From: a bacterium
GTDB lineage: Bacteria; Electryoneota; AABM5-125-24; Hatepunaeales; Hatepunaeaceae
Assembly: GCA_021734165.1 (NCBI GenBank)
Contig: JAIPJL010000001.1
Span: 8,792 to 72,791, forward strand
DNA length: 64,000 nucleotides
Direction: 5' to 3'
Below, piece by piece: positions 9,604-25,938 of the stretch (position 1 is the stretch's first letter; every line of letters begins with the position of its first letter). The translations under genes and the position numbers were made by a program. The notes below the pieces were generated by a model. That model had not been told where the DNA came from, did no database searches, and saw only the letters and a list, made by a program, of their open reading frames with translations.

Positions 9604-10506
9604 TCATCTTTTTTTATAAACAACTTTCACCCCCGACACCACCATCGCCATCAGTATCAATCCCGCGCCTATTAAAGACCTCCCCGACCATAACTCATTT
9701 AGTAACAACCAGGCAAACAGAGATGCAAAAATTGGCTCTGCTGTGAAGATCAACGCCGCATACCCGGCAGGCACCTGCGGTTGATATTTAGTCTGCAGCC
9801 AGGTGGCAGCAATCGATCCGAAAAGTCCCGTGTAAACAACAGCCAGCCAGCCTGTTCCGCTGATCTGAAACGGATTCCCGGCAATCAGACTCCAGATTAG
9901 GGCTCCTATAAATACCACCAGCATTTGTCCATACATCAGCAAACCTGTGTATTTGCCGTCACCTGCTACAAATTCAAGCGCTATCATCTGCAAAGCAAAC
10001 ACAAAGGCGCAGCTAATAGTCAGCCAGTCGCCAAGGTTTAAGCCACCTGAGCCGGGATCTGCCATGAAGTAAATACCCAGTACGGCAATAGGAATCCCCA
10101 GCCAGGCTGCCCTCGGCATTTTACTAGTCTTGAATAACAGGGCTAAGGGAGGCGTCATCACCACCAGCATTCCGGTGAAAAATCCGCTGCGTGAAGCTGT
10201 CGTGTGCTGCAATCCCAATACCTGCAAAGCAAATCCGAGAAACAGAAATATACCGACGAATATCCCGCGCAAGAGTACTGTTGCCGGCTTGGGATCGTTA
10301 TCTATATCTTTAGGAGATCTCAAAATGTGAGGGATAAAAAATGGAGTGGTAAGGATTACTGCCATACCAAATCTAAGCGCCAGGAAATGGATCGGATCGG
10401 TCAGCGACAGCGCAGATTTTGTAGCCGGAAACGTCCCACCCCATACAACACACAACAGCAACAGCATGAAGGTTGCGAAAACAGGGCGATTCTTGGTCGT
10501 TGTCAT
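9604..10506 (-). CDS. DMT-superfamily (EamA-type) permease with 10 TM segments
   Basis: Two EamA-like hydrophobic halves of about 300 aa in total. The gene abuts mazG. Confidence 0.8.
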   Translation of the reverse strand: MTTTKNRPVFATFMLLLLCVVWGGTFPATKSALSLTDPIHFLALRFGMAVILTTPFFIPHILRSPKDIDNDPKPATVLLRGIFVGIFLFLGFALQVLGLQHTTASRSGFFTGMLVVMTPPLALLFKTSKMPRAAWLGIPIAVLGIYFMADPGSGGLNLGDWLTISCAFVFALQMIALEFVAGDGKYTGLLMYGQMLVVFIGALIWSLIAGNPFQISGTGWLAVVYTGLFGSIAATWLQTKYQPQVPAGYAALIFTAEPIFASLFAWLLLNELWSGRSLIGAGLILMAMVVSGVKVVYKKR

Positions 10507-11318
10507 TACGACTTTTCCAACTCCTTCGCCTCATCCCAGTAGTCATCCATCTTTTCGAGCGTGACATCCTCTGGAGTTAATCCTTCTTCAGCCAGTTTCT
10601 TCTCGATGTAACTGAAACGGTTAATAAACTTACCTATTGTAGATTGGAGTGCAAGCTCCGGACACTTTCTGACATATCTTGCAACGCAAGCCGTCATAAA
10701 GAGCACATCACCAAGTTCGTCATTAATCTGATCGGAATCACCGTTAGCGATTGCCTGTTTCAGCTCAGCAACCTCTTCATCCAGCTTTTTCAACGCATCA
10801 TTAACGTTAGTCCACTCAAATCCAACCTTACCAGCCTTTTCAACCACTTTACGAGCTCTTAACAATGCAGGCATACTGGCAGGGATTGCTACTAAGCTGG
10901 TCGTATGTGAGCCTTCGGTACTTTTAGCATTCAACCATGAAGATAACGCTTCCTGTTCGTTATTTGCTTCAACATCCCCGAATACATGCGGGTGCCTGCG
11001 GATCAGCTTATCAGACAACTCCCTTGCAACATCACCAATATCGAAATCACCTCTCTCCGAAGCGAGTTGTGCATGAAAAATCACTTGCAAGAGCAGATCG
11101 CCAAGTTCCTCGCGCATCTCATCAACGTCACCTTTCTTGACACTATCAATAAACTCATAGCTCTCTTCAAGTAGATTTGGCAACAAAGATTCGGGAGTCT
11201 GTGCAGCATCCCAGGGGCAACCGCCGGGAGCGCGCAAGCGTGCCATGATTTGGATTACTCTTGCAAGATCTGGTAGCATATCGGGTGCTGATGTTTCTTT
11301 TCTATCGTGTGTTTTCAT
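10506..11318 (-). CDS. mazG: Nucleoside triphosphate pyrophosphohydrolase MazG (tandem MazG domains)
   Basis: IMARLRAPGGCPWDAAQTPESLLPNLLEESYE, plus a second EELGDVLF repeat. Confidence 0.85.
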   Translation of the reverse strand: MKTHDRKETSAPDMLPDLARVIQIMARLRAPGGCPWDAAQTPESLLPNLLEESYEFIDSVKKGDVDEMREELGDLLLQVIFHAQLASERGDFDIGDVARELSDKLIRRHPHVFGDVEANNEQEALSSWLNAKSTEGSHTTSLVAIPASMPALLRARKVVEKAGKVGFEWTNVNDALKKLDEEVAELKQAIANGDSDQINDELGDVLFMTACVARYVRKCPELALQSTIGKFINRFSYIEKKLAEEGLTPEDVTLEKMDDYWDEAKELEKS

Positions 11319-11378
11319 CTTGGAATGGGTTAAGTTAGATTTTGCTCAATATCTACAACCTAAACGAGTAATACGCTG

Positions 11379-11891
11379 CTATAACAATGTAATCGGTAAT
11401 CCAATCCTAATAGCACTATTGTGATCAGCGAGTATTACTCTCGGAATATTGAGGAGTGTTAGTTTTCCTGACAGCAACCTGTTAAGTTCATCTTTGATAG
11501 GGTGAAGAAGAGGAAGGTTGGTGTGGTTTGTTTTTATTACGTGAAATACCCTTATTTTCTTGGTGTGGTCGTAGATTCTGAAATCTTCAGGTATATCCCC
11601 TCGTATTTCGCTTCCTTTGGGAGTGTTTAACCATGTTGCACATAGCAGAAAAAGAGTGTCTATTGTTTTTTCAAGTAGGACTATTGTTAAATCATCTTCT
11701 TGGAAACTATGCATAGAATAGTTTTTTACTTCAAGCAGATTGATGCGATTTCTGTCTATATCGAACCAGCAATAATCCATTTCCCGAAGATTCTTACCTT
11801 TCAAATGAATATATGTTTGCAATTCCTGAATACGAAAACTCGCTCCATCCGGTAGTGTAATCCGTAAACCAGACTCCTCGTAAACAGGCAT
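11379..11891 (-). CDS. Small partner protein of the upstream ATPase, a putative PD-(D/E)xK-type nuclease-fold protein
   Basis: Its start is 1 nt after the ATPase stop, indicating translational coupling. The FDID...LLEVKNY arrangement resembles D...(D/E)xK. This is an inference, and no other family was recognised. Confidence 0.4.
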   Translation of the reverse strand: MPVYEESGLRITLPDGASFRIQELQTYIHLKGKNLREMDYCWFDIDRNRINLLEVKNYSMHSFQEDDLTIVLLEKTIDTLFLLCATWLNTPKGSEIRGDIPEDFRIYDHTKKIRVFHVIKTNHTNLPLLHPIKDELNRLLSGKLTLLNIPRVILADHNSAIRIGLPITLL

Positions 11892-11892
11892 A

Positions 11893-12945
11893 TTAATCCT
11901 CTAAATCTATTCTTATGTCTTCCTCAAACAATTTAACTGATACATCAACAATCCTGTTTTCAGGCAAACCCTGATCCATATCTCCGGTTTCTGCATTTAT
12001 TCCTTGAAAAGCACCCGCTTCATTTTCGACTTTATTGAGAGAACAAAATGAAACACTCGTGTTCGTTTGACGAGCAAGCATCTCGATCTTCTTGATTACA
12101 AAGTAGCTGTGCGTAGCTATATATACCTGCACACCTAACTTCGTGAAATCAAAAAGGACATCCATTAACTTAATTATTGCATCAGGATGCAGGTTATCTT
12201 CTGGTTCATCAATGAAAAGAATAGTATTTCTGTTTATTGATCTGTTGTTTAAAAGATGCCTTAATATTCCGATCTTCTTTACACCTTCAGCAGTTTGAGA
12301 CATCGTAAATGTCTTCTTTTGGGCGGTATATATAAACTCATCGTCTGACTTCTCTATCTTGCCACCGAGTATATTATCCAATCTATTTCGACCCGACAGT
12401 AGATCTAATTGAATTCTTCCACTTACGGATGGTAATAGGAGTAATTCCACTAAATCAAAATAAGTGTCATCATATCCGAGAATGGGTTTCTGACCTTTAC
12501 GCGATTCATAGATAATGTCAAGGGTTGTTAGTACTTCTTTTGGTGGAAAGAATATTGTATTAGCATCTGTCGCTGTTACAAGTTTATTACAATCTCTAAT
12601 CAAGCTAGTTGTATCAGTTCCAAATGCGAAATGATAACTTTGAAAATTCAACTTTAAATCAACGGCTAATCTACTTCCGCCCTTGGAAACTAATTCACCA
12701 AGTTTAAGCCGAGGAGGAAGGAATGTCCAACTTAACTTTTCTGCAAGCAATTCACTCCAATTGTGTTTACTACCTTCTGGTTGCTTACGATAATTATCTA
12801 AACTCTTTATAGCAGCATACATCAGTTTAAGGAGTTGCGTCTTGCCGGTACCGTTTTCGCCGACAATTACATTTAAAGCATGGTGATTTTGCCAATTTAA
12901 TTCGTCAAGAGGTCCAAATTTTTCGATTATAATCGATTCTAACAT
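11893..12945 (-). CDS. AAA_21/ABC-type (SMC-head-like) ATPase of OLD/Septu/PARIS-like type. It is not RecF.
   Basis: Walker A is VGENGTGKTQ. Walker B plus the family-diagnostic motif is ILFIDEPEDNLHP. A histidine switch ATHS is present. The gene sits 17 nt downstream of gyrB. Confidence 0.75.
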   Translation of the reverse strand: MLESIIIEKFGPLDELNWQNHHALNVIVGENGTGKTQLLKLMYAAIKSLDNYRKQPEGSKHNWSELLAEKLSWTFLPPRLKLGELVSKGGSRLAVDLKLNFQSYHFAFGTDTTSLIRDCNKLVTATDANTIFFPPKEVLTTLDIIYESRKGQKPILGYDDTYFDLVELLLLPSVSGRIQLDLLSGRNRLDNILGGKIEKSDDEFIYTAQKKTFTMSQTAEGVKKIGILRHLLNNRSINRNTILFIDEPEDNLHPDAIIKLMDVLFDFTKLGVQVYIATHSYFVIKKIEMLARQTNTSVSFCSLNKVENEAGAFQGINAETGDMDQGLPENRIVDVSVKLFEEDIRIDLED

Positions 12946-12962
12946 TGTTCTTCCGCTTAACT

Positions 12963-14951
<1,989 letters not shown>

Positions 14952-15314
14952 TTATTCAAACCTGATGTCTGCAACAACAGGTTCACCGACGGCATCATTG
15001 AGCTTCCTACGAATAACTTCTTTATCATAACTAAGCTCATTTCGCCAGACAGCATTTTTCACCTTAACTCGAAGAATGCCATTACTAATCGATATCGGTG
15101 ATGTAACTTTAATTATCTCTTTACCAACTACCTGTTCCCAGACAATAATCGCTCTTTGAGACTTAATTATTTTCTGGCAACCAAGTTTGTTCGTGAGATC
15201 ATCTATAGCTAAGCCAAGAGGAATCGAATCTCGCCTATGAGGAAGTTCGCTAACCCATTTCAGATAACCCGTCAGCCTTTTCTGGCTTTGGGGTTTCTTC
15301 TGTTGAAACGACAT
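14952..15314 (-). CDS. DUF721-family protein, the RecF-operon-associated small Zn-ribbon-like protein
   Basis: It is 120 aa and sits in the conserved dnaN-(recF)-DUF721-gyrB position. A typical basic N-terminus is present. Confidence 0.65.
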   Translation of the reverse strand: MSFQQKKPQSQKRLTGYLKWVSELPHRRDSIPLGLAIDDLTNKLGCQKIIKSQRAIIVWEQVVGKEIIKVTSPISISNGILRVKVKNAVWRNELSYDKEVIRRKLNDAVGEPVVADIRFE

Positions 15315-15322
15315 TTATAAAC

Positions 15323-16441
15323 CTACTTGAGCCTGATAGGCATCAGCAGCATTAAATGATCTTCATCTTCCTGTTGACCGGTGGCTGTAACTACGGCAGC
15401 ATCATTAGTTGATTTTAGCGCAAAAACGACTTCTTCTGTATCTATCTGACGCAATACATCAATAAGATAGCTTGAATTGTAGGCAATCTCAAGTGGCTCA
15501 CCACTGTAATCAATTGCGATCTTTTCTTCACCGCGACCACCAAGCTCGGGATCTTCTGTTTCAAGCTTCATATCCATGTCTGAAATAGAAAGCTTAACCT
15601 GATGTGAAATCTGGTTTGCAAAGATCGATACTCTACCAACAGTAGCCATAAACTCATCAGCATTGACTGTCATCTTATACGGATTATCATCAGGAATTAC
15701 ACTTTCATATTTCGGGTAATGACCATCAATAAGCCGTGTGATTAGTCTTTGATGCTCAGTATAGAAATATGCTCTGGTTTCAGCAATTCCGATCTCCGGT
15801 TCGTCAGCATCATCCAGACTGCGTGTTAATAGATTCAGGGCTTTCATAGGTATCACTACATCACGAGCTTCACCTGAAAATTCAATTCCTCGCCTGATGA
15901 TTCGAGATAATCTATGTCCGTCTGTAGCTACGACACGTAGTTCATTTGATCTGATCTGCATTAATATACCGGTAAGTATAGGACGCATATCATCACGTGA
16001 TACTGCAAAAACTGTTTTTGAAATCAACCTTTTTAAGAACTCGCCACTTATCTTGAAGTTAATCTTCGCCTCGACAGAAGGAAGCTCCGGAAAATCCATA
16101 GGATCACCACCTGGAAGAGTATAAACGCCAACACCTTCACAGTTAAGTGTAACCTTTCTGCCTTCATGGACTTCCACCTCAAGAGGTACATCCGGCAGTT
16201 TGCTCACAAGCTCTTGTAGCCTCTTTGCCTGAATTAAAACACTACCATCTCCTTCTGACTCTATAATCTCAACTTTTGAAGTTATAGTAATCTCAAGATC
16301 TGTCGCAGTAATATCAAGACTACCATCTTTCAGTCTGAAGAAAATGTTACCAAGTGAAGGCATAGGCATTCTCACAGGTACTGCGCCCATAACCCGTTGG
16401 AGACTTCTATGTATCGAAGCCTGAGTGAACGTAAATTTCAT
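15323..16441 (-). CDS. dnaN: DNA polymerase III beta sliding clamp
   Basis: N-terminus MKFTFTQASIHRSLQRV, three clamp domains and 372 aa in total. It lies directly downstream of dnaA. Confidence 0.9.
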   Translation of the reverse strand: MKFTFTQASIHRSLQRVMGAVPVRMPMPSLGNIFFRLKDGSLDITATDLEITITSKVEIIESEGDGSVLIQAKRLQELVSKLPDVPLEVEVHEGRKVTLNCEGVGVYTLPGGDPMDFPELPSVEAKINFKISGEFLKRLISKTVFAVSRDDMRPILTGILMQIRSNELRVVATDGHRLSRIIRRGIEFSGEARDVVIPMKALNLLTRSLDDADEPEIGIAETRAYFYTEHQRLITRLIDGHYPKYESVIPDDNPYKMTVNADEFMATVGRVSIFANQISHQVKLSISDMDMKLETEDPELGGRGEEKIAIDYSGEPLEIAYNSSYLIDVLRQIDTEEVVFALKSTNDAAVVTATGQQEDEDHLMLLMPIRLK

Positions 16442-16932
16442 TTATTTTTCCTTTCTTACTGAGTAAATGCTCCTACTAAACGGAACTTACCCGTTCAATA
16501 ATGTATAAATTATCAGGTAAGATAGCAACACCTTTGAGTACCTTTTTACCTTTGTGAAAAATCGTATTTAAATTACTAAAGAATAATATATTATTTTAAA
16601 AATAATAGTGGTAATAATGGTGTTAATTTGTTGATAAAGATGCTGTTTTTGAACTTAATTATTCTATAAGTGTTGAATTATTTTGAACTAAAAGAATAAG
16701 GCGAAAATGTTAATAGTATTGTTAATAAGATTACTTTACGTTAATTAACATTAATAAAAAATAGAAATACTCGGATCCGCTTAGTTTGAAACTTATAGCT
16801 AATATATATTAACATTAGGTTTCAAAATTGGTTAATAAAGAGAGAAAAAAGCGTTAGTTTATGTTTATCCCGGTACGACATATAAACTAACGCAATTTTA
16901 AAACTCTGTTGACTTTTTATCAGCATGTGAGA
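16442..16932. promoter_or_regulatory. Candidate oriC: an AT-rich 491 bp dnaA-dnaN intergenic region
   Basis: Very AT-rich, with long A/T tracts that could act as a DNA-unwinding element. It contains TGTTGATAA (16629-16637), an 8/9 match to the reverse DnaA box TGTGGATAA, and several TTATC(A/C) fragments. Confidence 0.45.
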
Positions 16933-18327
16933 TTAGATTAAAGCAATGTCAATATCCCTTCGGATTTTTGCGATCATTTCTCTAACTTTAACATTATTCT
17001 CGATGAGTTCATTTACTACTTTCACAGCATGAATAACAGTTGCGTGATTTCTCCCGCCAAAATGCAGTCCGATAGTTTTTTGTGTTAGAATTGTGTATTC
17101 AGTAGTCAGATACATAGCGATATGTCTGGCTCTTACGACTTCTTTTTTTCGTGTTTTCGACCGGATTAAATCACTTGGTATATCCATCTCCCTGGCAACC
17201 ATTTCCTGGATTTGATCCACTGATATCGTATAGGATGGCTGGTTATGTTGTTTCTTGATAGCCTCACGAGCAAGATCAAGGGTTATTTCACGTCCCATTA
17301 GGGATGATTGAGCGAGAAGCTGAATTAACGCACTCTGTAAAGAGCGAATGTTAGTCGAGATGTGAACTGAAAGGAAATGGGCAATATCGTCTGAGATGTC
17401 GATGCCATTTTCTTTGGAGAGGTTCTTTAATATTGCCAGTCGTGTTTCATATTCAGGTTTTTGTACTTCTGCGACAAGTCCCCATTGCAACCGACTAACA
17501 AGTCTTTTATCGAAACCGTTAAGTTCATTTGGAGGACGGTCTGAGGAAAAGACCAGTAATTTACCTACCTGGTGAAGTGAGTTAAATGTATGGAAAAACT
17601 CCTCCTGAGTTTTCTCCTTAGTCATAAAGAATTGGACGTCATCAAGCAAAAGTAGATCTACATTTCTATAGTTTTTTATAAAGACGTCTTTTTTTCCATC
17701 CTGAATGCCTTTGATAAAATCAGATGTAAACTGTTCGCTTGTAACATAGAGTACTTTTTTTACCCGACCGAGTTCAACAGCGCGATTACCTATAGCCTGC
17801 ATTAAATGTGTTTTACCTAATCCGGAACCACCATAAATAAGTAGCGGATTGAAGGGATTTTTTCCTGGTGTTTCAGCAAGCGAGAGAGCTGCCGCGCGCG
17901 CAAAGCTATTGCAATCGCCTTCAATGAAATTACTAAACCTATAACGTGGATTTAGATGAGTGTAACTGGCGCTGATGCTTAAAGTTGATGTATAATCAGA
18001 AGTTGGCGCTGATTTTTCTCTGTAGGCAATTCGTTCGCTTATAATTTGAGGTTTGCCTGGATTGATGTCGTACATAACCACAATATTTTCACCGAGCACG
18101 TCTTTAACAGCTTGATGCAGCGGATCATGGTAATGACTCTCAATCCAGTCATGGCAAAATTGACTTGGGATACGGAGTGTTAGTGTCTTTTGGTCATATG
18201 CAAGAGCTTCAATAGGCTTAAACCAGGTGAGGTAGCTCTGTGGAGGAATGATATCTTGCAAGATTGTAGAAATTTTTTGCCAAACCATCTGTGGATGTTC
18301 ACTTGATTGAAAGGCTGGTTGGGTCAT
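16933..18327 (-). CDS. dnaA: Chromosomal replication initiator DnaA
   Basis: AAA+ Walker A is GGSGLGKTHL. The C-terminal DnaA-box binding domain is present (IAMYLTTEYT..IGLHFGGRNHATV). Confidence 0.95.
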   Translation of the reverse strand: MTQPAFQSSEHPQMVWQKISTILQDIIPPQSYLTWFKPIEALAYDQKTLTLRIPSQFCHDWIESHYHDPLHQAVKDVLGENIVVMYDINPGKPQIISERIAYREKSAPTSDYTSTLSISASYTHLNPRYRFSNFIEGDCNSFARAAALSLAETPGKNPFNPLLIYGGSGLGKTHLMQAIGNRAVELGRVKKVLYVTSEQFTSDFIKGIQDGKKDVFIKNYRNVDLLLLDDVQFFMTKEKTQEEFFHTFNSLHQVGKLLVFSSDRPPNELNGFDKRLVSRLQWGLVAEVQKPEYETRLAILKNLSKENGIDISDDIAHFLSVHISTNIRSLQSALIQLLAQSSLMGREITLDLAREAIKKQHNQPSYTISVDQIQEMVAREMDIPSDLIRSKTRKKEVVRARHIAMYLTTEYTILTQKTIGLHFGGRNHATVIHAVKVVNELIENNVKVREMIAKIRRDIDIALI

Positions 18328-18563: not shown

Positions 18564-20306
18564 TCACTTACCTGTTTTCAACCAGATTGGATTCGAGTAT
18601 GCGAATCGAGTTGAGCCATTATGCAGGCGAGTGTGAATTTCTGCTCTTAGATAAAGCTCGCCTTGAAGCTGAAACTCAATACCCTTGTAATATATTGGTT
18701 CATTATTATTTACATCAAAATTCACTTGGAAGATTGATTTTTCGTCACCGGAATTATAAGTATTAACAATAATTCTTTCTATACAGCCGAATTCTTCTGA
18801 TGATTGACATGTGACTCGTATAAGGGAGTTTGGATCAGATAAGGTCTCGTCTCCGGATAAAAATTTCTTTGATTGATTTAGGACAGTCAATTCGAGGACT
18901 GGTCCGCTACTAATAACAGTCCTTCCAAGTTCTAAAGCTTTTAGAACATTTTGCACAGTGGGAGTTTCGTTGATGTACACATGAGTAGTGGATTTACCAA
19001 AGATAAAGTTATCATGTTCATGCAGTGAAAGCATCGGCATTTTTACCTGCCTGAAACGATTGAAGTTGCCATGTGCATCATTACCGGCGTATATATAACG
19101 TCTTTCACCCTTCAACAGCGCTGTTATCCATTTTTCTAATCCGAGATAAAAATCCTTTTCCGGATTTCCGTTGAGTATCTGCCATCCGCTAAGTCCGGAA
19201 GCGCTCAGATCGCTATCCTGCCAGATACTTCTATTAACCAAATGCTTTTGCAGAAATGGTACAGGGGAAAATGGATGCGCCGCTATAGTAACCGAATTCT
19301 CTGACAGAGCGGCTATGGCATGTCTGACGGTAAATTGGCTTCTCGTCTGAAACCATTCCTGAGCGCTGTCACCTGTGCCCTGTAGGAATCTTTGCTCACC
19401 AAGAACCAGCATGTGGACGTTTTTTCCATTGGATGCTCGACAGGTCAGTTCCTCACCCGGAACGAGTACAACACTACCGGGCATTTTATTGAGACGTTTA
19501 ACATGAGACAGGAATCCGTGCCATTTAAGGAGTTGCGGATCATCGTGAAGATAGTCATCGATCATGTCATCGAGGTTGTATGAGTGGTCGGTAAGGCTTA
19601 CCCAGTCGAGTCCCAGCGCATCCGCTGTTGATTTTATGGCTTCGAGAGGAGCTCCGAACTCAACCTGATCGCAGCCGTATTCAGTGTGGGTATGCAGTTC
19701 TCCGGCATACCAGCCTGGCAGCTTCGGTAGTGGCTCGGCAGCGAGAAAGACCTCAAGCGGAGCTTGTGATAGCCCATGATAGTTATCCTGACTAACATCC
19801 CATGTGCGTTTTTTATCTTGAAGATGAGCGGTTGCTTCGATCTTGACCAAACCAGGTGGAAAATCAGACACATCCACGTCTGAGACGCAGTGCCAGAGGG
19901 ATTTGTTAATCCACAGGTTCAACGGTATGTTGAGCGACTGCGATTTTTCGCCGTTGCTGATCCTGATGTCAATACTCTCGAGCTTAACCGGAAAATGGTG
20001 GGCGTCTTTGATGATCATTGTTATCGGCAGATTGTGATTGGGTTCCAGCCTGAAGGGAGCGTCGAAGATTACTTCCGGCTCACGCCTGAAGTATCTGCTG
20101 AAAGGAAAACCGCGAAAGCGATAGTGAGTCTCAGCGTAGAGCCCGATCAGGGGGATTAGATCGGGGATGTTTATGTTAGTTGGATCAATCAAGGTTTCCG
20201 ATAATAACACAGTAGTGGTGTCAGGTATCCTCGCCCTGCAGCGCTTCCGTTGAATTATCACCCGGAGTAACGAAGCTTGCTTCGTTGTAGAGCAGCGCTC
20301 AGGCAA
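18564..20306 (-). CDS. PHP-domain metal-dependent phosphoesterase with unknown N- and C-terminal regions. The start is uncertain.
   Basis: PHP motifs: GELHTHTEYG (HxH), SLTDHS, VLVPGEELTC, IAAHPFSP and AGNDAHG. The first Met of the ORF may not be the true start. Confidence 0.6.
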   Translation of the reverse strand: MPERCSTTKQASLLRVIIQRKRCRARIPDTTTVLLSETLIDPTNINIPDLIPLIGLYAETHYRFRGFPFSRYFRREPEVIFDAPFRLEPNHNLPITMIIKDAHHFPVKLESIDIRISNGEKSQSLNIPLNLWINKSLWHCVSDVDVSDFPPGLVKIEATAHLQDKKRTWDVSQDNYHGLSQAPLEVFLAAEPLPKLPGWYAGELHTHTEYGCDQVEFGAPLEAIKSTADALGLDWVSLTDHSYNLDDMIDDYLHDDPQLLKWHGFLSHVKRLNKMPGSVVLVPGEELTCRASNGKNVHMLVLGEQRFLQGTGDSAQEWFQTRSQFTVRHAIAALSENSVTIAAHPFSPVPFLQKHLVNRSIWQDSDLSASGLSGWQILNGNPEKDFYLGLEKWITALLKGERRYIYAGNDAHGNFNRFRQVKMPMLSLHEHDNFIFGKSTTHVYINETPTVQNVLKALELGRTVISSGPVLELTVLNQSKKFLSGDETLSDPNSLIRVTCQSSEEFGCIERIIVNTYNSGDEKSIFQVNFDVNNNEPIYYKGIEFQLQGELYLRAEIHTRLHNGSTRFAYSNPIWLKTGK

Positions 20307-20396: not shown

Positions 20397-20957
20397 TCAA
20401 TCTCCGGCTAAAGCGCCTCGAATTCGCTCAAACTCTTTACAAGCTGCAACTAATGAATCAGGTGGAGATTCCAGTTCTTCCCCATTTTTGCAGTTATTTG
20501 CCAGCTTATCGACTAATTGATGTCCTTTCTTGCTTTCGCAAATCGTTCTGTATTCGTTTTTGTATTCTTTTTGTTCGGATTCATCAACATCAACACCATC
20601 CAGATAGGCTGCCCACGTTTCAATAGACCATTTGGGAATGACGTATATAATCTGTTCTTTTTCCGTTCTGGGTGGTTGAAATTTTGAGTCAAGAATCCTG
20701 GTCGCCTCTTTTACAGAATCTTCATCAGCGTCGCGAACTATTAGCAGGATGGTTGAGGCATGTCGTGTCCGGAGCGCTTTCGCTTCCTCACCAATTTTAT
20801 CTTCCACGAATTTTTTACCCGAACCTTTCTCTCGCGGGTAGGGACGGAAACGAAATTTGTAGATAGGAACTTTCCAGCCTGACCTTAAAAAGCGACGAAC
20901 GAAAACCTCATGGCTTTTATCCTCACAAAGGACAATGATCTCCGAGGCTTTACTCAT
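20397..20957 (-). CDS. TOPRIM-like small protein of DUF4276/RloB-like type, partner of the upstream ATPase
   Basis: An N-terminal IIVLCEDKSHE acidic motif followed by LLIVRDADEDS (DxD) fits the TOPRIM Glu...DxD arrangement. The gene overlaps the ATPase stop by 8 nt. Confidence 0.5.
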   Translation of the reverse strand: MSKASEIIVLCEDKSHEVFVRRFLRSGWKVPIYKFRFRPYPREKGSGKKFVEDKIGEEAKALRTRHASTILLIVRDADEDSVKEATRILDSKFQPPRTEKEQIIYVIPKWSIETWAAYLDGVDVDESEQKEYKNEYRTICESKKGHQLVDKLANNCKNGEELESPPDSLVAACKEFERIRGALAGD

Positions 20958-22059
20958 TTTCCCAACCTCGTACCACTATTTCAGCAGGCGTAAGGTCAGC
21001 CACAGGTTTCAGAGGCTTCGTTATCACATGTGAACCCTCTTGACGCGAGAACCATAACTCTTCACCTCTTGCCATTTCATTAATGATCTCAGGGTGATGC
21101 GAGATAATAATGACTTGTCGATCATACTCATCGCAGATATCTTTCAGGTTGTTTATCCAGGGCTGAATTTCCCTTAGTGAAACGAAATTATCCGGCTCAT
21201 CTATTAAAATTTCCGTGTAAATTCCTATCTGAAGCGCTAACATTAGGGTGTAAAGTATAATTAGTTGGCGTTGCCCATCAGATAAGGATAGAAAATCAAA
21301 ATCCCTGTCCTTGCCGTTGATCCTGAAGGTTGCTGTTAAACGACGTGACGAACCAACCTCTTTCAGACGCAAGCTCTCAAAGCCTGGAAGTACGTCTTTC
21401 AAATGCTCTTTAGTCAGGTAACTTATATTTGGGTGTTCCTGAAAGATGTAGCGACACCATTCTGAAAAGTTCTCTGCATGAAAGGATAGCCATCGTGTTT
21501 CGGATTCAGCATCTTGTTTTACAAAATGAGGTATGGGGTTAATAAGCAACCATTTTAAAACAGCTTCACGGAAACGAAGCAGCGGCTCATTGCCTTCGTT
21601 TTCAGCGATAGTAGAAATAACCGAACGACTCCAGTCTGCCCCAAACGAAACTCCCTTCTCGGGTTTACCAGTATCTCTATTGACTCGATATAGGTGTGTG
21701 TTCTTTCCGTCAAACAGGTAGAAAGTGGAATCATTCCACTTCAATTCCTCTCTATCGATCCTGATCTTGTTCTCAGATTTTAACCACTCTATGCTAAGAT
21801 TGTAATCATAACTATCATTGTCTATCAGCATTGAAAAACCAATGGTCTGCGTTGTACGCTTGTCCCATACAGTCAAATCTGAGATGCTAAATATATCCTC
21901 CACATGGTTACCTTTTAAGAGAGACTGAATGTTTCTCAAAGCGGTAAGCACTGTGGATTTGCCGGAACCGTTATCACCAAGCCAGAGCTGAAATTCTCCC
22001 GGTTGGATGCGGAAATTGGTTAAACACTTGAAATTGTCAATGTAAATTTCTTTTATCAT
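20950..22059 (-). CDS. AAA_21/ABC-type ATPase of the OLD/PARIS AriA/RloA-like family
   Basis: Walker A is GDNGSGKST. A LSDGQRQ signature-like motif is present. Walker B is ILIDEPDNFVSL, and IISHH follows. Confidence 0.75.
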   Translation of the reverse strand: MIKEIYIDNFKCLTNFRIQPGEFQLWLGDNGSGKSTVLTALRNIQSLLKGNHVEDIFSISDLTVWDKRTTQTIGFSMLIDNDSYDYNLSIEWLKSENKIRIDREELKWNDSTFYLFDGKNTHLYRVNRDTGKPEKGVSFGADWSRSVISTIAENEGNEPLLRFREAVLKWLLINPIPHFVKQDAESETRWLSFHAENFSEWCRYIFQEHPNISYLTKEHLKDVLPGFESLRLKEVGSSRRLTATFRINGKDRDFDFLSLSDGQRQLIILYTLMLALQIGIYTEILIDEPDNFVSLREIQPWINNLKDICDEYDRQVIIISHHPEIINEMARGEELWFSRQEGSHVITKPLKPVADLTPAEIVVRGWENE

Positions 22060-24031: not shown

Positions 24032-25012
24032 CTAAACTTCCTTTTTACGTTTATCGATCTGAAGACGACTGATAAACAGAACGCCAATTAAAGCAGGTAT
24101 CAGTACGTTCATGGCGAACATGAGGATGGAGGCGTTGAAAGCAGCTTCAGGAGAAGCGCCGAACTGACCGAAAAATTGTACGGATACAAGCTGATCTACT
24201 CCGAGGTCGGCAATAGCAATAGGTAAAGCTGTTTTCGCAAAGAGAATAGCTGCTGCGCCGCGTATGCTGGTGAATATGTCTAACTGAGCAAAACTGCTGA
24301 TTAGCAGGTAGTACTGGACAAGGAATACAATGTAATGCGCAAGAGTCAACAGCAGCGTAAACCGCGCTTGCGGGGCGTTGAAATAATCCAAGCCATGCGC
24401 CAGTTGAGCGATTCTGTTTCGTCGCGGAAAGGTAATTTGAAGTGAATAGATAAGGCTTCTAATGGGTCGAGGATCAAGCGCCAAATAAAGCAGCAGCAAT
24501 CCAAGTATTAATACGAGGATAATAATCGAGATAAATAGGTGTGTTTTGGATATAAAGACATCCATCTCGATAATATCGAAAGTTCCGAGCTTAAATATCC
24601 AGGGTAATGTTATCAGGGCAGGAAGTCCGAATGCTACAGTACAGCCGATGTTGTAAAATTTATCAATTATCGTTAAACCGACGAGGTTCAGCGTATTGTG
24701 TTTGATAAAGAAACCGCGTCCGTATTCACCGATACGTCCCGGAGTCACAATACCGAGTGCATAACCGCCAAGTAATGAACCGAGTGACTCATTGAAGGTG
24801 ATGCCGGGATAAATAAGCCTGACGAGATAGCGCCATTTATACTCGGTCAGCCAGATATTCAAGGGCATGAGCAGAAATGCGGCAATTACAAGGCTATATT
24901 CCGCGGAGCGGAAAGCAGAAATGATAGCTTCCATGCGGATGGTGCGATACATTAAGCCAAGCAGAACAACAGCAACGGCGACTTTAATCCAGAATAGCGT
25001 TCGTTTCTTCAT
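24032..25012 (-). CDS. UPF0104 / lysylphosphatidylglycerol-synthase-TM-like (flippase-like) integral membrane protein
   Basis: Eight or more TM segments and the typical ...GGYALGIVTPGRIGEYGRGFF segment. Confidence 0.65.
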   Translation of the reverse strand: MKKRTLFWIKVAVAVVLLGLMYRTIRMEAIISAFRSAEYSLVIAAFLLMPLNIWLTEYKWRYLVRLIYPGITFNESLGSLLGGYALGIVTPGRIGEYGRGFFIKHNTLNLVGLTIIDKFYNIGCTVAFGLPALITLPWIFKLGTFDIIEMDVFISKTHLFISIIILVLILGLLLLYLALDPRPIRSLIYSLQITFPRRNRIAQLAHGLDYFNAPQARFTLLLTLAHYIVFLVQYYLLISSFAQLDIFTSIRGAAAILFAKTALPIAIADLGVDQLVSVQFFGQFGASPEAAFNASILMFAMNVLIPALIGVLFISRLQIDKRKKEV

Positions 25013-25938
25013 TAATAGACTGATTTACGAGGCAGATACAAATTTCTCAAGCCCTCTGTGCAGTTACGACACATCGGTATTTTATCCCTGCCTCCGTGAT
25101 TGACGACGTGTTGGAATTCTCTGATCGTTTTTCCTTTCCAGATTTCGCGCCAGGGCTGTTTGAAAGCATTGCCCATTGAGTGAAAGTCGTTGGTACTAAA
25201 ACAGCAGGGCAGTACATCCCCGTTCCATGCAACTACGGCGGAGTGAGCAAGTCTGCGGCAATTGGAGCGTGTTCTGTTCATCTCAAGATGATCGTTAACA
25301 AGTTTATACCGCCATAGCCTTGGGTCATCCGGCAAATGAGTCAAAGATTCTTCCAAATTTTCCGGATGCGAAACCCTGTAGGTCTTAAATTTAACCTCGT
25401 CAACTCCCAATGACAAGGTTAAATCATAAATAGCTTTGAATTGTGATTTTGATTGGCGTGAAATTAAACACTCGACGATGACCTTTGGTTTTCGGCTGCC
25501 GAGGCTCTTGCGAGCTTCAACGAGCGCGCGAACGCCTTTCTCAACGTCCGTCAGTGAACCACCTTTTCTGATGCGAGAATATGTTTCTTCATCAGCTCCG
25601 TCTATACCGATGCTAATTCTATTCAATCCGGATTTTACAATATTTTCAGCTAATCCACTTTTAGACAGCAGGATGCCGTTGGTATGAGTCTGAGTCCAGA
25701 TTTTACGCCGTGTCGCTTCAGCAACCATTGCAGTAAAATCGGGAGCAACGAGGGGATCGCCTCGGTGCCAGAGATTGAGGAATCTCAGCCAGGGTAATTG
25801 TTTGATGACATGGACGAAATACGCGATGCGCATCACGCCTCCGCCTCTACCGGAGGCGGTCGGGCAGTCAGGACAGTCAAGATTGCAGGCTGCGGATGGC
25901 TCCATCCAGAGCATTATGGGAGTCGGAAAACGAAACAC
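25012..25938 (-). CDS. Radical SAM enzyme with a C-terminal SPASM/twitch auxiliary Fe-S domain
   Basis: CNLDCPDC, which is the Cx3Cx2C radical-SAM cluster. Additional C-terminal Cys clusters are CRRLAHSAVVAWNGDVLPCC and CRNCTEG. Confidence 0.8.
   Translation of the reverse strand: MFRFPTPIMLWMEPSAACNLDCPDCPTASGRGGGVMRIAYFVHVIKQLPWLRFLNLWHRGDPLVAPDFTAMVAEATRRKIWTQTHTNGILLSKSGLAENIVKSGLNRISIGIDGADEETYSRIRKGGSLTDVEKGVRALVEARKSLGSRKPKVIVECLISRQSKSQFKAIYDLTLSLGVDEVKFKTYRVSHPENLEESLTHLPDDPRLWRYKLVNDHLEMNRTRSNCRRLAHSAVVAWNGDVLPCCFSTNDFHSMGNAFKQPWREIWKGKTIREFQHVVNHGGRDKIPMCRNCTEGLRNLYLPRKSVY

Follow-up and report, generated by a model that had tools for sequence, protein, structure and literature searches.

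HEC-02 (Hma-embedded candidate 2; Payne et al., bioRxiv 10.1101/2024.01.29.577857) consists of an ABC ATPase and a NERD-like PD-(D/E)xK protein and was found embedded in Hma systems; the assignment of the second protein to NERD was structural in that study. The pair tested there, from Dickeya dianthicola NCPPB 3534 (WP_024108366.1 and WP_024108365.1), protected against several coliphages, whose plaquing fell by orders of magnitude; this protection needed both genes (10.1101/2024.01.29.577857).

Other defence systems share elements of this design. PARIS has an OLD-type ABC ATPase (AriA) adjoining a small nuclease effector (AriB, TOPRIM), Septu and retron Ec78 have a two-gene layout in which the ATPase is followed by the nuclease (the ABC ATPase PtuA and the HNH protein PtuB), and in OLD nucleases, Gabija GajA and retron Eco8 an OLD-type ABC ATPase head is fused to a TOPRIM nuclease.

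A gene pair resembling all of these is present in the 64 kb stretch of DNA analysed here (the window), which comes from an uncultured lineage of the FCB group related to candidate division LCP-89. It encodes an ABC ATPase of the OLD/AAA_21 type with 350 aa (MCF7809366.1; positions 11893-12945, minus strand) and a 170 aa protein with a predicted restriction endonuclease (REase)-like PD-(D/E)xK fold (MCF7809365.1, K9N50_00100; 11379-11891, minus strand). The original prediction, made from the sequence alone, had described genes of these sizes in the same orientation, and both open reading frames are indeed present; that they lie on the minus strand had been omitted. We consider it probable (roughly 0.8) that the pair is a two-gene HEC-02-type anti-phage cassette which was inserted horizontally after gyrB and in which the ATPase regulates the nuclease.

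Family assignment of the gene pair

In Pfam, the ATPase matches only the generic families AAA_21 and AAA_15 (~1e-16), and the NCBIfam search gave no equivalog. The family HMMs used here are those of PADLOC-DB v2, among which the HEC-02A model PDLC04214 matches with 3e-112 (residues 1-347 on profile positions 1-336 of 338); the models PDLC04213 (3.3e-67) and PDLC04146 (1.3e-43) match as well. The translation contains the Walker A motif (P-loop) GENGTGKT, also located by motif regex (residues 29-36; 12838-12861), the Walker B motif with the D-loop ILFIDEPEDNLHP (residues 242-254; 12184-12222) and the H-loop ATHS (residues 277-280; 12106-12117), all on the minus strand. Both the motifs named in the original prediction and the OLD/AAA_21-type family proposed there thus agree with the translation and with the Pfam and PADLOC-DB matches. 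The conserved columns were taken from an alignment of 41 homologues. Invariant in it are, among others, G29, N31 and K35 (Walker A), G221 (signature), D246, E247, L252, H253 and P254 (Walker B and D-loop) and H279 (H-loop), with A277 and T278 nearly invariant; the window ATPase retains every family-invariant residue, with all four motifs intact.

The partner matches the HEC-02B model PDLC04224 with 3.7e-39 (residues 1-166 on profile positions 1-174 of 182). It was identified through the PADLOC HMMs and a structure model only, as the other sequence-level searches failed: Pfam (E<=1), NCBIfam, PHROGs and a PDB profile search returned nothing meaningful, and NERD (PF08378) was not recognised, like any other Pfam family at E<=1. 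Foldseek of the model against the PDB gave no match at E<=0.001. A word-indexed search with the partner alone as a query found 5 proteins; the alignment was therefore built from the neighbours of ATPase homologues, followed by an exhaustive HMMER search. The resulting compact family comprises 282 clusters at 50% identity, and almost all of its members are stand-alone proteins of 170-200 aa.

The high-confidence structure model (pLDDT 95) predicts a restriction-endonuclease-like PD-(D/E)xK fold. In this model D39, the proposed metal ligand (codon 11775-11777, minus strand), is located just before the beta-strand 40-44, and the (D/E)xK motif E54-V-K56 (codons 11724-11732, minus strand) inside the beta-strand 49-58. 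All of 119 family sequences share S7, P14, E37, D39, W42, E54, K75 and H157, and at least 90% of them have K56. D44 is outside the invariant columns, one homologue having E at this position. From the possible PD-(D/E)xK arrangement proposed originally (FDID...LLEVKNY) the LLEVK half (E54-x-K56) stands, but FDID has to be replaced, the conserved acid being D39 in EMD. The suggestion of a PD-(D/E)xK partner as such is in line with the predicted fold and the conserved D39/E54/K56. Furthermore, neither Pfam nor the PADLOC HMMs gave an HNH, TOPRIM or DUF4435 match for the partner, as had been predicted.

We compared both proteins with the tested Dickeya sequences, drawn from Table S2 of Payne et al. 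(10.1101/2024.01.29.577857). The ATPases share 30% identity (E 5e-32) and the partners ~31% over 97 residues (BLASTP E 3e-4); comparison of the partner family profile with the Dickeya partner gave an hhalign probability of 96.7% over 150 columns, with AMD...LIEVKDY of Dickeya aligned to EMD...LLEVKNY of the window. In both cases a gene for an ABC ATPase (~345 aa in HEC-02) is followed by an adjacent, co-oriented gene for a protein of ~170 aa. The tested pair corresponds to the PADLOC sub-models PDLC04146 and PDLC04145 (note that the A and B labels are swapped there), the window pair and every homologue pair scanned to PDLC04214 and PDLC04224. For a two-gene system, PADLOC requires neighbouring genes in the same orientation, and this is the layout found here, with a 1-nt gap and both genes on the minus strand.

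On the basis of these HMM matches and the gene layout, the pair is a divergent copy of HEC-02, from a subclade other than that of the tested Dickeya pair. By homology to the latter, the PDLC04214/PDLC04224 subclade would have anti-phage activity, too. The antiphage-type module of an ATPase and a nuclease-fold protein that had been proposed fits this family membership as judged from the sequences, but the designation as uncharacterised or novel does not hold, because both proteins match PADLOC HEC-02 models over the full length and a HEC-02 relative has been validated by plaque assay in the preprint. That the pair is an ATPase-nuclease defence system of a truly new kind, outside everything catalogued so far, is accordingly very improbable and at the family level refuted: the lack of a Pfam, NCBIfam or PHROG family for the partner and the low identities to tested HEC-02 (only 30% between the ATPases, and between the partners about 31% over 97 residues) might suggest one, but are outweighed by the full-length matches of both proteins with very low E-values, by the profile comparison with the aligned catalytic motif, and by the same architecture, protein sizes and gene order.

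The solved structures nearest to the ATPase by sequence are PtuA, the Eco8 OLD nuclease, an OLD-family protein and AriA. PtuA chains come first (2e-12 to 6e-11), with matches that cover the conserved N- and C-terminal ATPase motifs only; the window ATPase has 350 aa, compared with ~550 in the top-scoring retron-type PtuA chains and 465 in Septu PtuA. Unlike in Septu, the partner has no PtuB/HNH match in Pfam or the PADLOC HMMs, and its fold is REase-like according to the model. AriA HMMs match the C-terminal half of the ATPase (about 1e-17 to 2e-18; PDB AriA 2e-06), which is ~110 aa shorter than AriA of PARIS. The partner differs from the PARIS effector in its modelled REase-like fold and in having no AriB, TOPRIM or DUF4435 match (PADLOC HMMs, Pfam), and no counterpart of the Ocr-type trigger is evident for the window pair. 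The ATPase head is also matched by the retron Eco8 effector of NCBIfam (3e-13), PADLOC Old (4e-13), GajA (8e-13) and PDB 6p74. In these enzymes, however, the TOPRIM nuclease is part of the ATPase chain, whereas the window pair has a separate protein with a different predicted fold.

The replication operon and the recF gene

According to the ORF list and the raw sequence, the minus strand is the coding strand of the entire cluster from dnaA to mazG. It comprises dnaA (16933-18327), dnaN (15323-16441), the DUF721 gene (DciA in Pfam; 14952-15314), gyrB as the upstream flank of the pair (12963-14924) and mazG as its downstream flank (10506-11318; Pfam MazG 6.9e-43); a gene for an EamA transporter, listed after mazG, belongs to the same minus-strand cluster. 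The spacer between dnaA and dnaN (490 nt) has a GC content of 25-30% and coincides with the minimum of the cumulative GC skew. Therefore, the dnaA-dnaN-gyrB cluster very probably flanks oriC. The ATPase-nuclease pair would then be, again very probably, ~3.5-5 kb from the origin and transcribed co-directionally with the replication fork.

The gyrB stop and the ATPase start are separated by 17 nt (12946-12962, minus strand) including a Shine-Dalgarno-like GGAAG, and the partner stop and the mazG start by 60 nt (11319-11378, minus strand); together with the 1 nt between the ATPase and the partner, these are the distances that had been predicted. Scans of the cassette region (10300-13400) for sigma-70 promoters and terminators yielded no more sites than shuffled controls, and nothing in this interval resembled a terminator. 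The pair is probably co-transcribed with gyrB, a reading based solely on the 17-nt gap with GGAAG and the absence of a detectable terminator.

The SMC-head-like P-loop N-terminus of the ATPase and its dnaA-dnaN-gyrB neighbourhood are reminiscent of RecF. It could thus be a replication or repair factor that belongs to the origin operon by nature, either a divergent RecF-like or an SMC-head protein, with the partner as an accessory subunit, the more so as no RecF-like P-loop ORF was found by motif anywhere in the 64 kb window; the absence of recF from the dnaN-DUF721-gyrB cluster had been noted correctly. However, the resemblance to the SMC_N/RecF head is confined to the N-terminal 40 residues (an SMC_N fragment with 5e-06 in Pfam, below the threshold, and the RecF model TIGR00611 with 3.2e-06 for residues 3-42 only), and the TIGR00611 score of 26.5 bits compares with a cutoff of 172 and with 297-309 bits for the true RecFs of relatives. 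Among the PDB sequence matches at E<=1e-3 there are PtuA, OLD and AriA but no RecF chains. In contrast to RecF, the ATPase is not conserved in relatives (it is missing, with its partner, in the close relative L088 and in 80 related genomes; see below), it has a predicted nuclease partner, and its closest homologues are encoded by members of unrelated phyla, on plasmids and within BREX-like loci. A RecF-like factor is thus effectively refuted. The identity of the ATPase with RecF itself was rejected for the score far under the cutoff, the lack of a PDB RecF match and the position on the wrong side of gyrB, which agrees with the original prediction.

The same prediction had placed the pair where recF normally sits, and this has to be corrected. 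In Ignavibacteria and Bacteroidota relatives, the order is dnaA-dnaN-recF-dciA-gyrB, with recF as a gene of ~1.1 kb between dnaN and dciA; the pair, by contrast, lies on the downstream side of gyrB. The dnaN and dciA genes of the window overlap, so that there is no slot for recF. As the cluster of the closest LCP-89-type relatives (L008-L010) lacks recF without having the pair, the pair did not displace it; the absence of recF is a feature of the lineage unrelated to the cassette. Note that an SMC-head-like ATPase gene beside gyrB in a genome without recF could easily be mislabelled as recF during annotation.

Insertion between gyrB and mazG

Hundreds of homologues were found for the proteins of the pair. 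Apart from MCF7809366.1 itself, the nearest ATPase homologue is only 47-48% identical, and the homologues have a scattered distribution, with members in cyanobacteria (among them plasmid CP003593), Myxococcota and Bacteroidota; a few are encoded on plasmids. The pairing of the two genes is constant in other genomes, where they are always 2-13 nt apart; their surroundings vary. Homologous pairs are found e.g. inside a BREX/DISARM-like locus (in the order BrxC/PglY, methylase, pair, SNF2 helicase, PglZ), two genes downstream of a restriction-modification (RM) module, adjoining a C5 methylase gene and a UPF0175-type toxin-antitoxin (TA) gene, and 19 nt 3' of trpA in Minicystis. The occurrence of homologues inside other defence systems resembles that of HEC-02 in Hma; in contrast, the window cassette lies within an operon of housekeeping replication genes beside oriC rather than in a defence system.

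A scan of genomes with GyrB yielded 80 loci, none with the pair or with mazG after gyrB. The best of them belong to LCP-89- and Tariuqbacter-type MAGs (64-67% amino acid identity), followed by Ignavibacteria and Chlorobi; relatives with at most 67% identity are too distant to reveal an empty site. A metagenome scan with MazG gave L088 (Ga0307378_10216208), which has ~84% nucleotide identity to the window. Here, mazG follows directly after gyrB without the pair (92% amino acid identity for the 3' end of gyrB, 86% for mazG), and the 85-nt spacer between them folds into a hairpin of 10 bp with a U-run behind it (dG -18.9 kcal/mol, z -5.4). This hairpin, which has a 9-nt loop, was overlooked by the terminator scanner, and the region was folded separately. 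In the window, the cassette is present in place of this terminator-hairpin spacer. A second relative, L093 (Ga0364475_14851717; ~85% nucleotide identity), has the pair at the same junction and retains the 3' end of the ATPase gene (92% amino acid identity), the partner (79%), the 60-nt spacer and the start of mazG. This spacer is conserved between L093 and the window and unrelated to the spacer of L088.

The pair is thus a variable insertion, polymorphic among close relatives, as follows from the distant homologues, the varied contexts, the absence in relatives and the recovery of an empty and an occupied allele; the comparison of the gyrB-mazG interval bears out the insertion that had been suspected. 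The two alleles, L088 and L093, are the decisive evidence. The GC content is weak support: the values of the pair (0.36-0.37) are lower than those of gyrB and mazG (0.45-0.46), but dnaA, dnaN and dciA are only slightly richer in GC (0.40-0.41). At the junctions, no target-site duplications or flanking repeats longer than 6 nt were found, and the ORF list contains no integrase or transposase adjoining the pair.

Comparison of the window with L093 gave a dN/dS of 0.07 for the C-terminal part of the ATPase and 0.25 for the partner. Judged by these ratios, both genes are maintained by purifying selection, with the predicted nuclease evolving faster. Together with the HMM matches (3e-112 and 3.7e-39) and the hundreds of homologues, this shows that they are real genes rather than chance ORFs.

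Proposed function and alternatives

The mechanism proposed here is derived from the requirement for both genes in Dickeya HEC-02 and from the analogy with PARIS and Septu. In this model, the cassette arrived by horizontal transfer and took the place of the terminator region at the 3' end of gyrB. Its transcription probably depends on read-through from the dnaN-dciA-gyrB operon, and the second gene is coupled translationally to the ATPase gene across the 1-nt gap. The ATPase, most likely an ATP-dependent dimer or oligomer, may sense an infection cue through its variable inserts; it would hold or regulate the nuclease and activate or release it upon this cue. A plausible working model is provided by PARIS, where the ATPase sequesters or activates the nuclease upon sensing a phage protein. 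The nuclease would then cut nucleic acid, presumably DNA in view of the REase fold with D39/E54/K56, these residues being the putative metal-binding and catalytic triad, and the outcome would be phage restriction or abortive infection. The trigger, the substrate and a physical complex of ATPase and nuclease, including its stoichiometry, are suggested by analogy with the described systems; we also infer a role of ATP binding or hydrolysis in the mechanism.

Instead of defending this host against phages, the pair could be a selfish toxin-antitoxin or addiction module, acting through post-segregational killing or stabilising the origin-proximal region. This is unlikely. Pfam labels AAA_21 as putative AbiEii toxin/type IV TA-like, the distribution is patchy and mobile with plasmids included, one homologue adjoins the UPF0175-type TA gene, and the defence role of the PDLC04214/PDLC04224 subclade is deduced from homology; on the other hand, homologues have BREX-like and RM surroundings, as is usual for defence systems, and the homologous Dickeya pair gives phage-specific protection which requires both genes (10.1101/2024.01.29.577857). 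A system may serve both in abortive-infection defence and in addiction, and the strong purifying selection on the ATPase (dN/dS 0.07) is compatible with either.

Returning to the HEC-02 defence cassette, one may ask whether its placement is itself functional: present instead of the gyrB terminator, it may be expressed from the dnaN-dciA-gyrB transcript, with a dose that depends on the number of origin copies. Taken with the second ATPase pair upstream of dnaA and with the HEPN and DUF3800 genes flanking gyrB in relatives, this would make the origin cluster of the candidate phylum a dedicated hotspot for defence genes wired to replication. We regard this as doubtful. In model bacteria, gyrB is transcribed more strongly when the DNA is relaxed. 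If the proposal were true, changes in topology or replication induced by phages would raise the expression of the defence genes via the control of gyrB.

New here are the HEC-02 membership in an uncultured FCB-group lineage, on the basis of the sequence matches, and the clear embedding in an origin-proximal replication operon for which both the empty and the occupied allele were recovered. The record of this recently described system is thereby extended to a lineage related to candidate division LCP-89 and to the PDLC04214/PDLC04224 subclade. The locus is a clean natural presence/absence polymorphism of a defence cassette within a core replication operon rather than in a defence island, and it favours the view that cassettes of this type travel as compact units able to use a host operon for their expression. 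Ready targets for mutagenesis are K35, D246 and E247 of the ATPase and D39, E54 and K56 of the predicted nuclease. The overall significance is modest, and for a specialist the result is tidy but unsurprising.

Besides the cassette, the window carries a second ATPase pair upstream of dnaA. BLASTP against the published HEC-01B gave no match, and the single-sequence AF2 model of its 186 aa ORF was unusable (pLDDT 41.8). In relatives, HEPN and DUF3800 genes are found at the flanks of gyrB.

A second ATPase pair and the probable replication origin

Just upstream of dnaA, the window carries a second ATPase plus small-ORF pair on the minus strand (20397-22059). It consists of a 369 aa ORF encoding an AAA_21/SMC_N-type ABC ATPase (20950-22059, minus strand) and a 186 aa ORF encoding its small partner (20397-20957, minus strand), the two sharing an 8-nt overlap. 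The top PADLOC matches of the 369 aa ATPase were only moderate (HEC-01A, 2.5e-22; PDC-M25A; mad3). No matches to the 186 aa ORF were found in Pfam, NCBIfam or PADLOC, and BLASTP with the published HEC-01B did not retrieve it either; a TOPRIM-like signature (IIVLCED ... LLIVRDADED) was spotted in it by eye. Its single-sequence AF2 model (pLDDT 41.8) was too poor for use. This pair, possibly a split system that diverged from the HEC-01/OLD-like type, is more poorly catalogued than the reported HEC-02 pair. Between it and dnaA lies a 580 aa ORF for a CehA/McbA-family (PHP-type) metallohydrolase (18564-20306, minus strand; NF038032, 8e-27).

The spacer between dnaA and dnaN (16442-16932; 490 nt, 25-30% GC) is the probable oriC, based on its length, its low GC content and its position at the cumulative GC skew minimum. 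The gene order in Ignavibacteria and Bacteroidota is dnaA-dnaN-recF-dciA-gyrB. In the window, dnaN and dciA overlap (within 14952-16441) and therefore leave no slot for recF; a RecF-like P-loop ORF could not be found anywhere in the whole 64 kb. Among the LCP-89-type relatives, recF is missing from the origin cluster as well (this comparison covers the cluster only).

Further away, a 308 aa ORF (25012-25938, minus strand) located in a glycosyltransferase/polysaccharide cluster gave weak PADLOC matches to prokaryotic viperins (5e-6), which most likely reflect merely a generic radical-SAM domain.

Origin clusters in related genomes and irregular gene copies in other sequences

The origin cluster of the LCP-89-type MAGs (L008-L010), which are the closest genome-level relatives, holds other conflict-type genes. 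In all three, a gene for a Swt1-like HEPN protein (PF18731, 2.6e-8; L008:5065-5838) is located upstream of gyrB, between dciA and an EamA gene, and a gene for a DUF3800 protein (PF12686, 7.9e-11; L008:9203-9973) follows immediately 3' of gyrB. In this clade, accessory or defence-like genes may have settled repeatedly at the gyrB flanks.

Two gene copies in other sequences are irregular. On the Oscillatoria princeps chromosome (L005:9038-9400), the gene for the HEC-02 partner shows a truncation or frameshift past ~90 residues; the called protein has 120 aa, and its alignment fails beyond the ExK strand. The HEC-02 ATPase beside this damaged gene is intact, and the copy is probably decaying. In the metagenome contig of the relative with the empty site (L088:444-1248), tblastn aligns mazG to the MazG of the window in two pieces that overlap, and the ORF that begins at position 444 meets a stop after 216 codons (versus 270). 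Either the gene is frameshifted or this short contig is misassembled.

Labelling of the HEC-02 models

The A and B labels of two HEC-02 models in PADLOC-DB v2 appear to be swapped. The ATPases are hit by PDLC04146 (labelled HEC-02B, 344 positions), the Dickeya one at 8e-183, and PDLC04145 (labelled HEC-02A, 170 positions) matches the small nuclease. Later models use the opposite naming, with A for the ATPase (PDLC04213/04214) and B for the nuclease (PDLC04221-04229).
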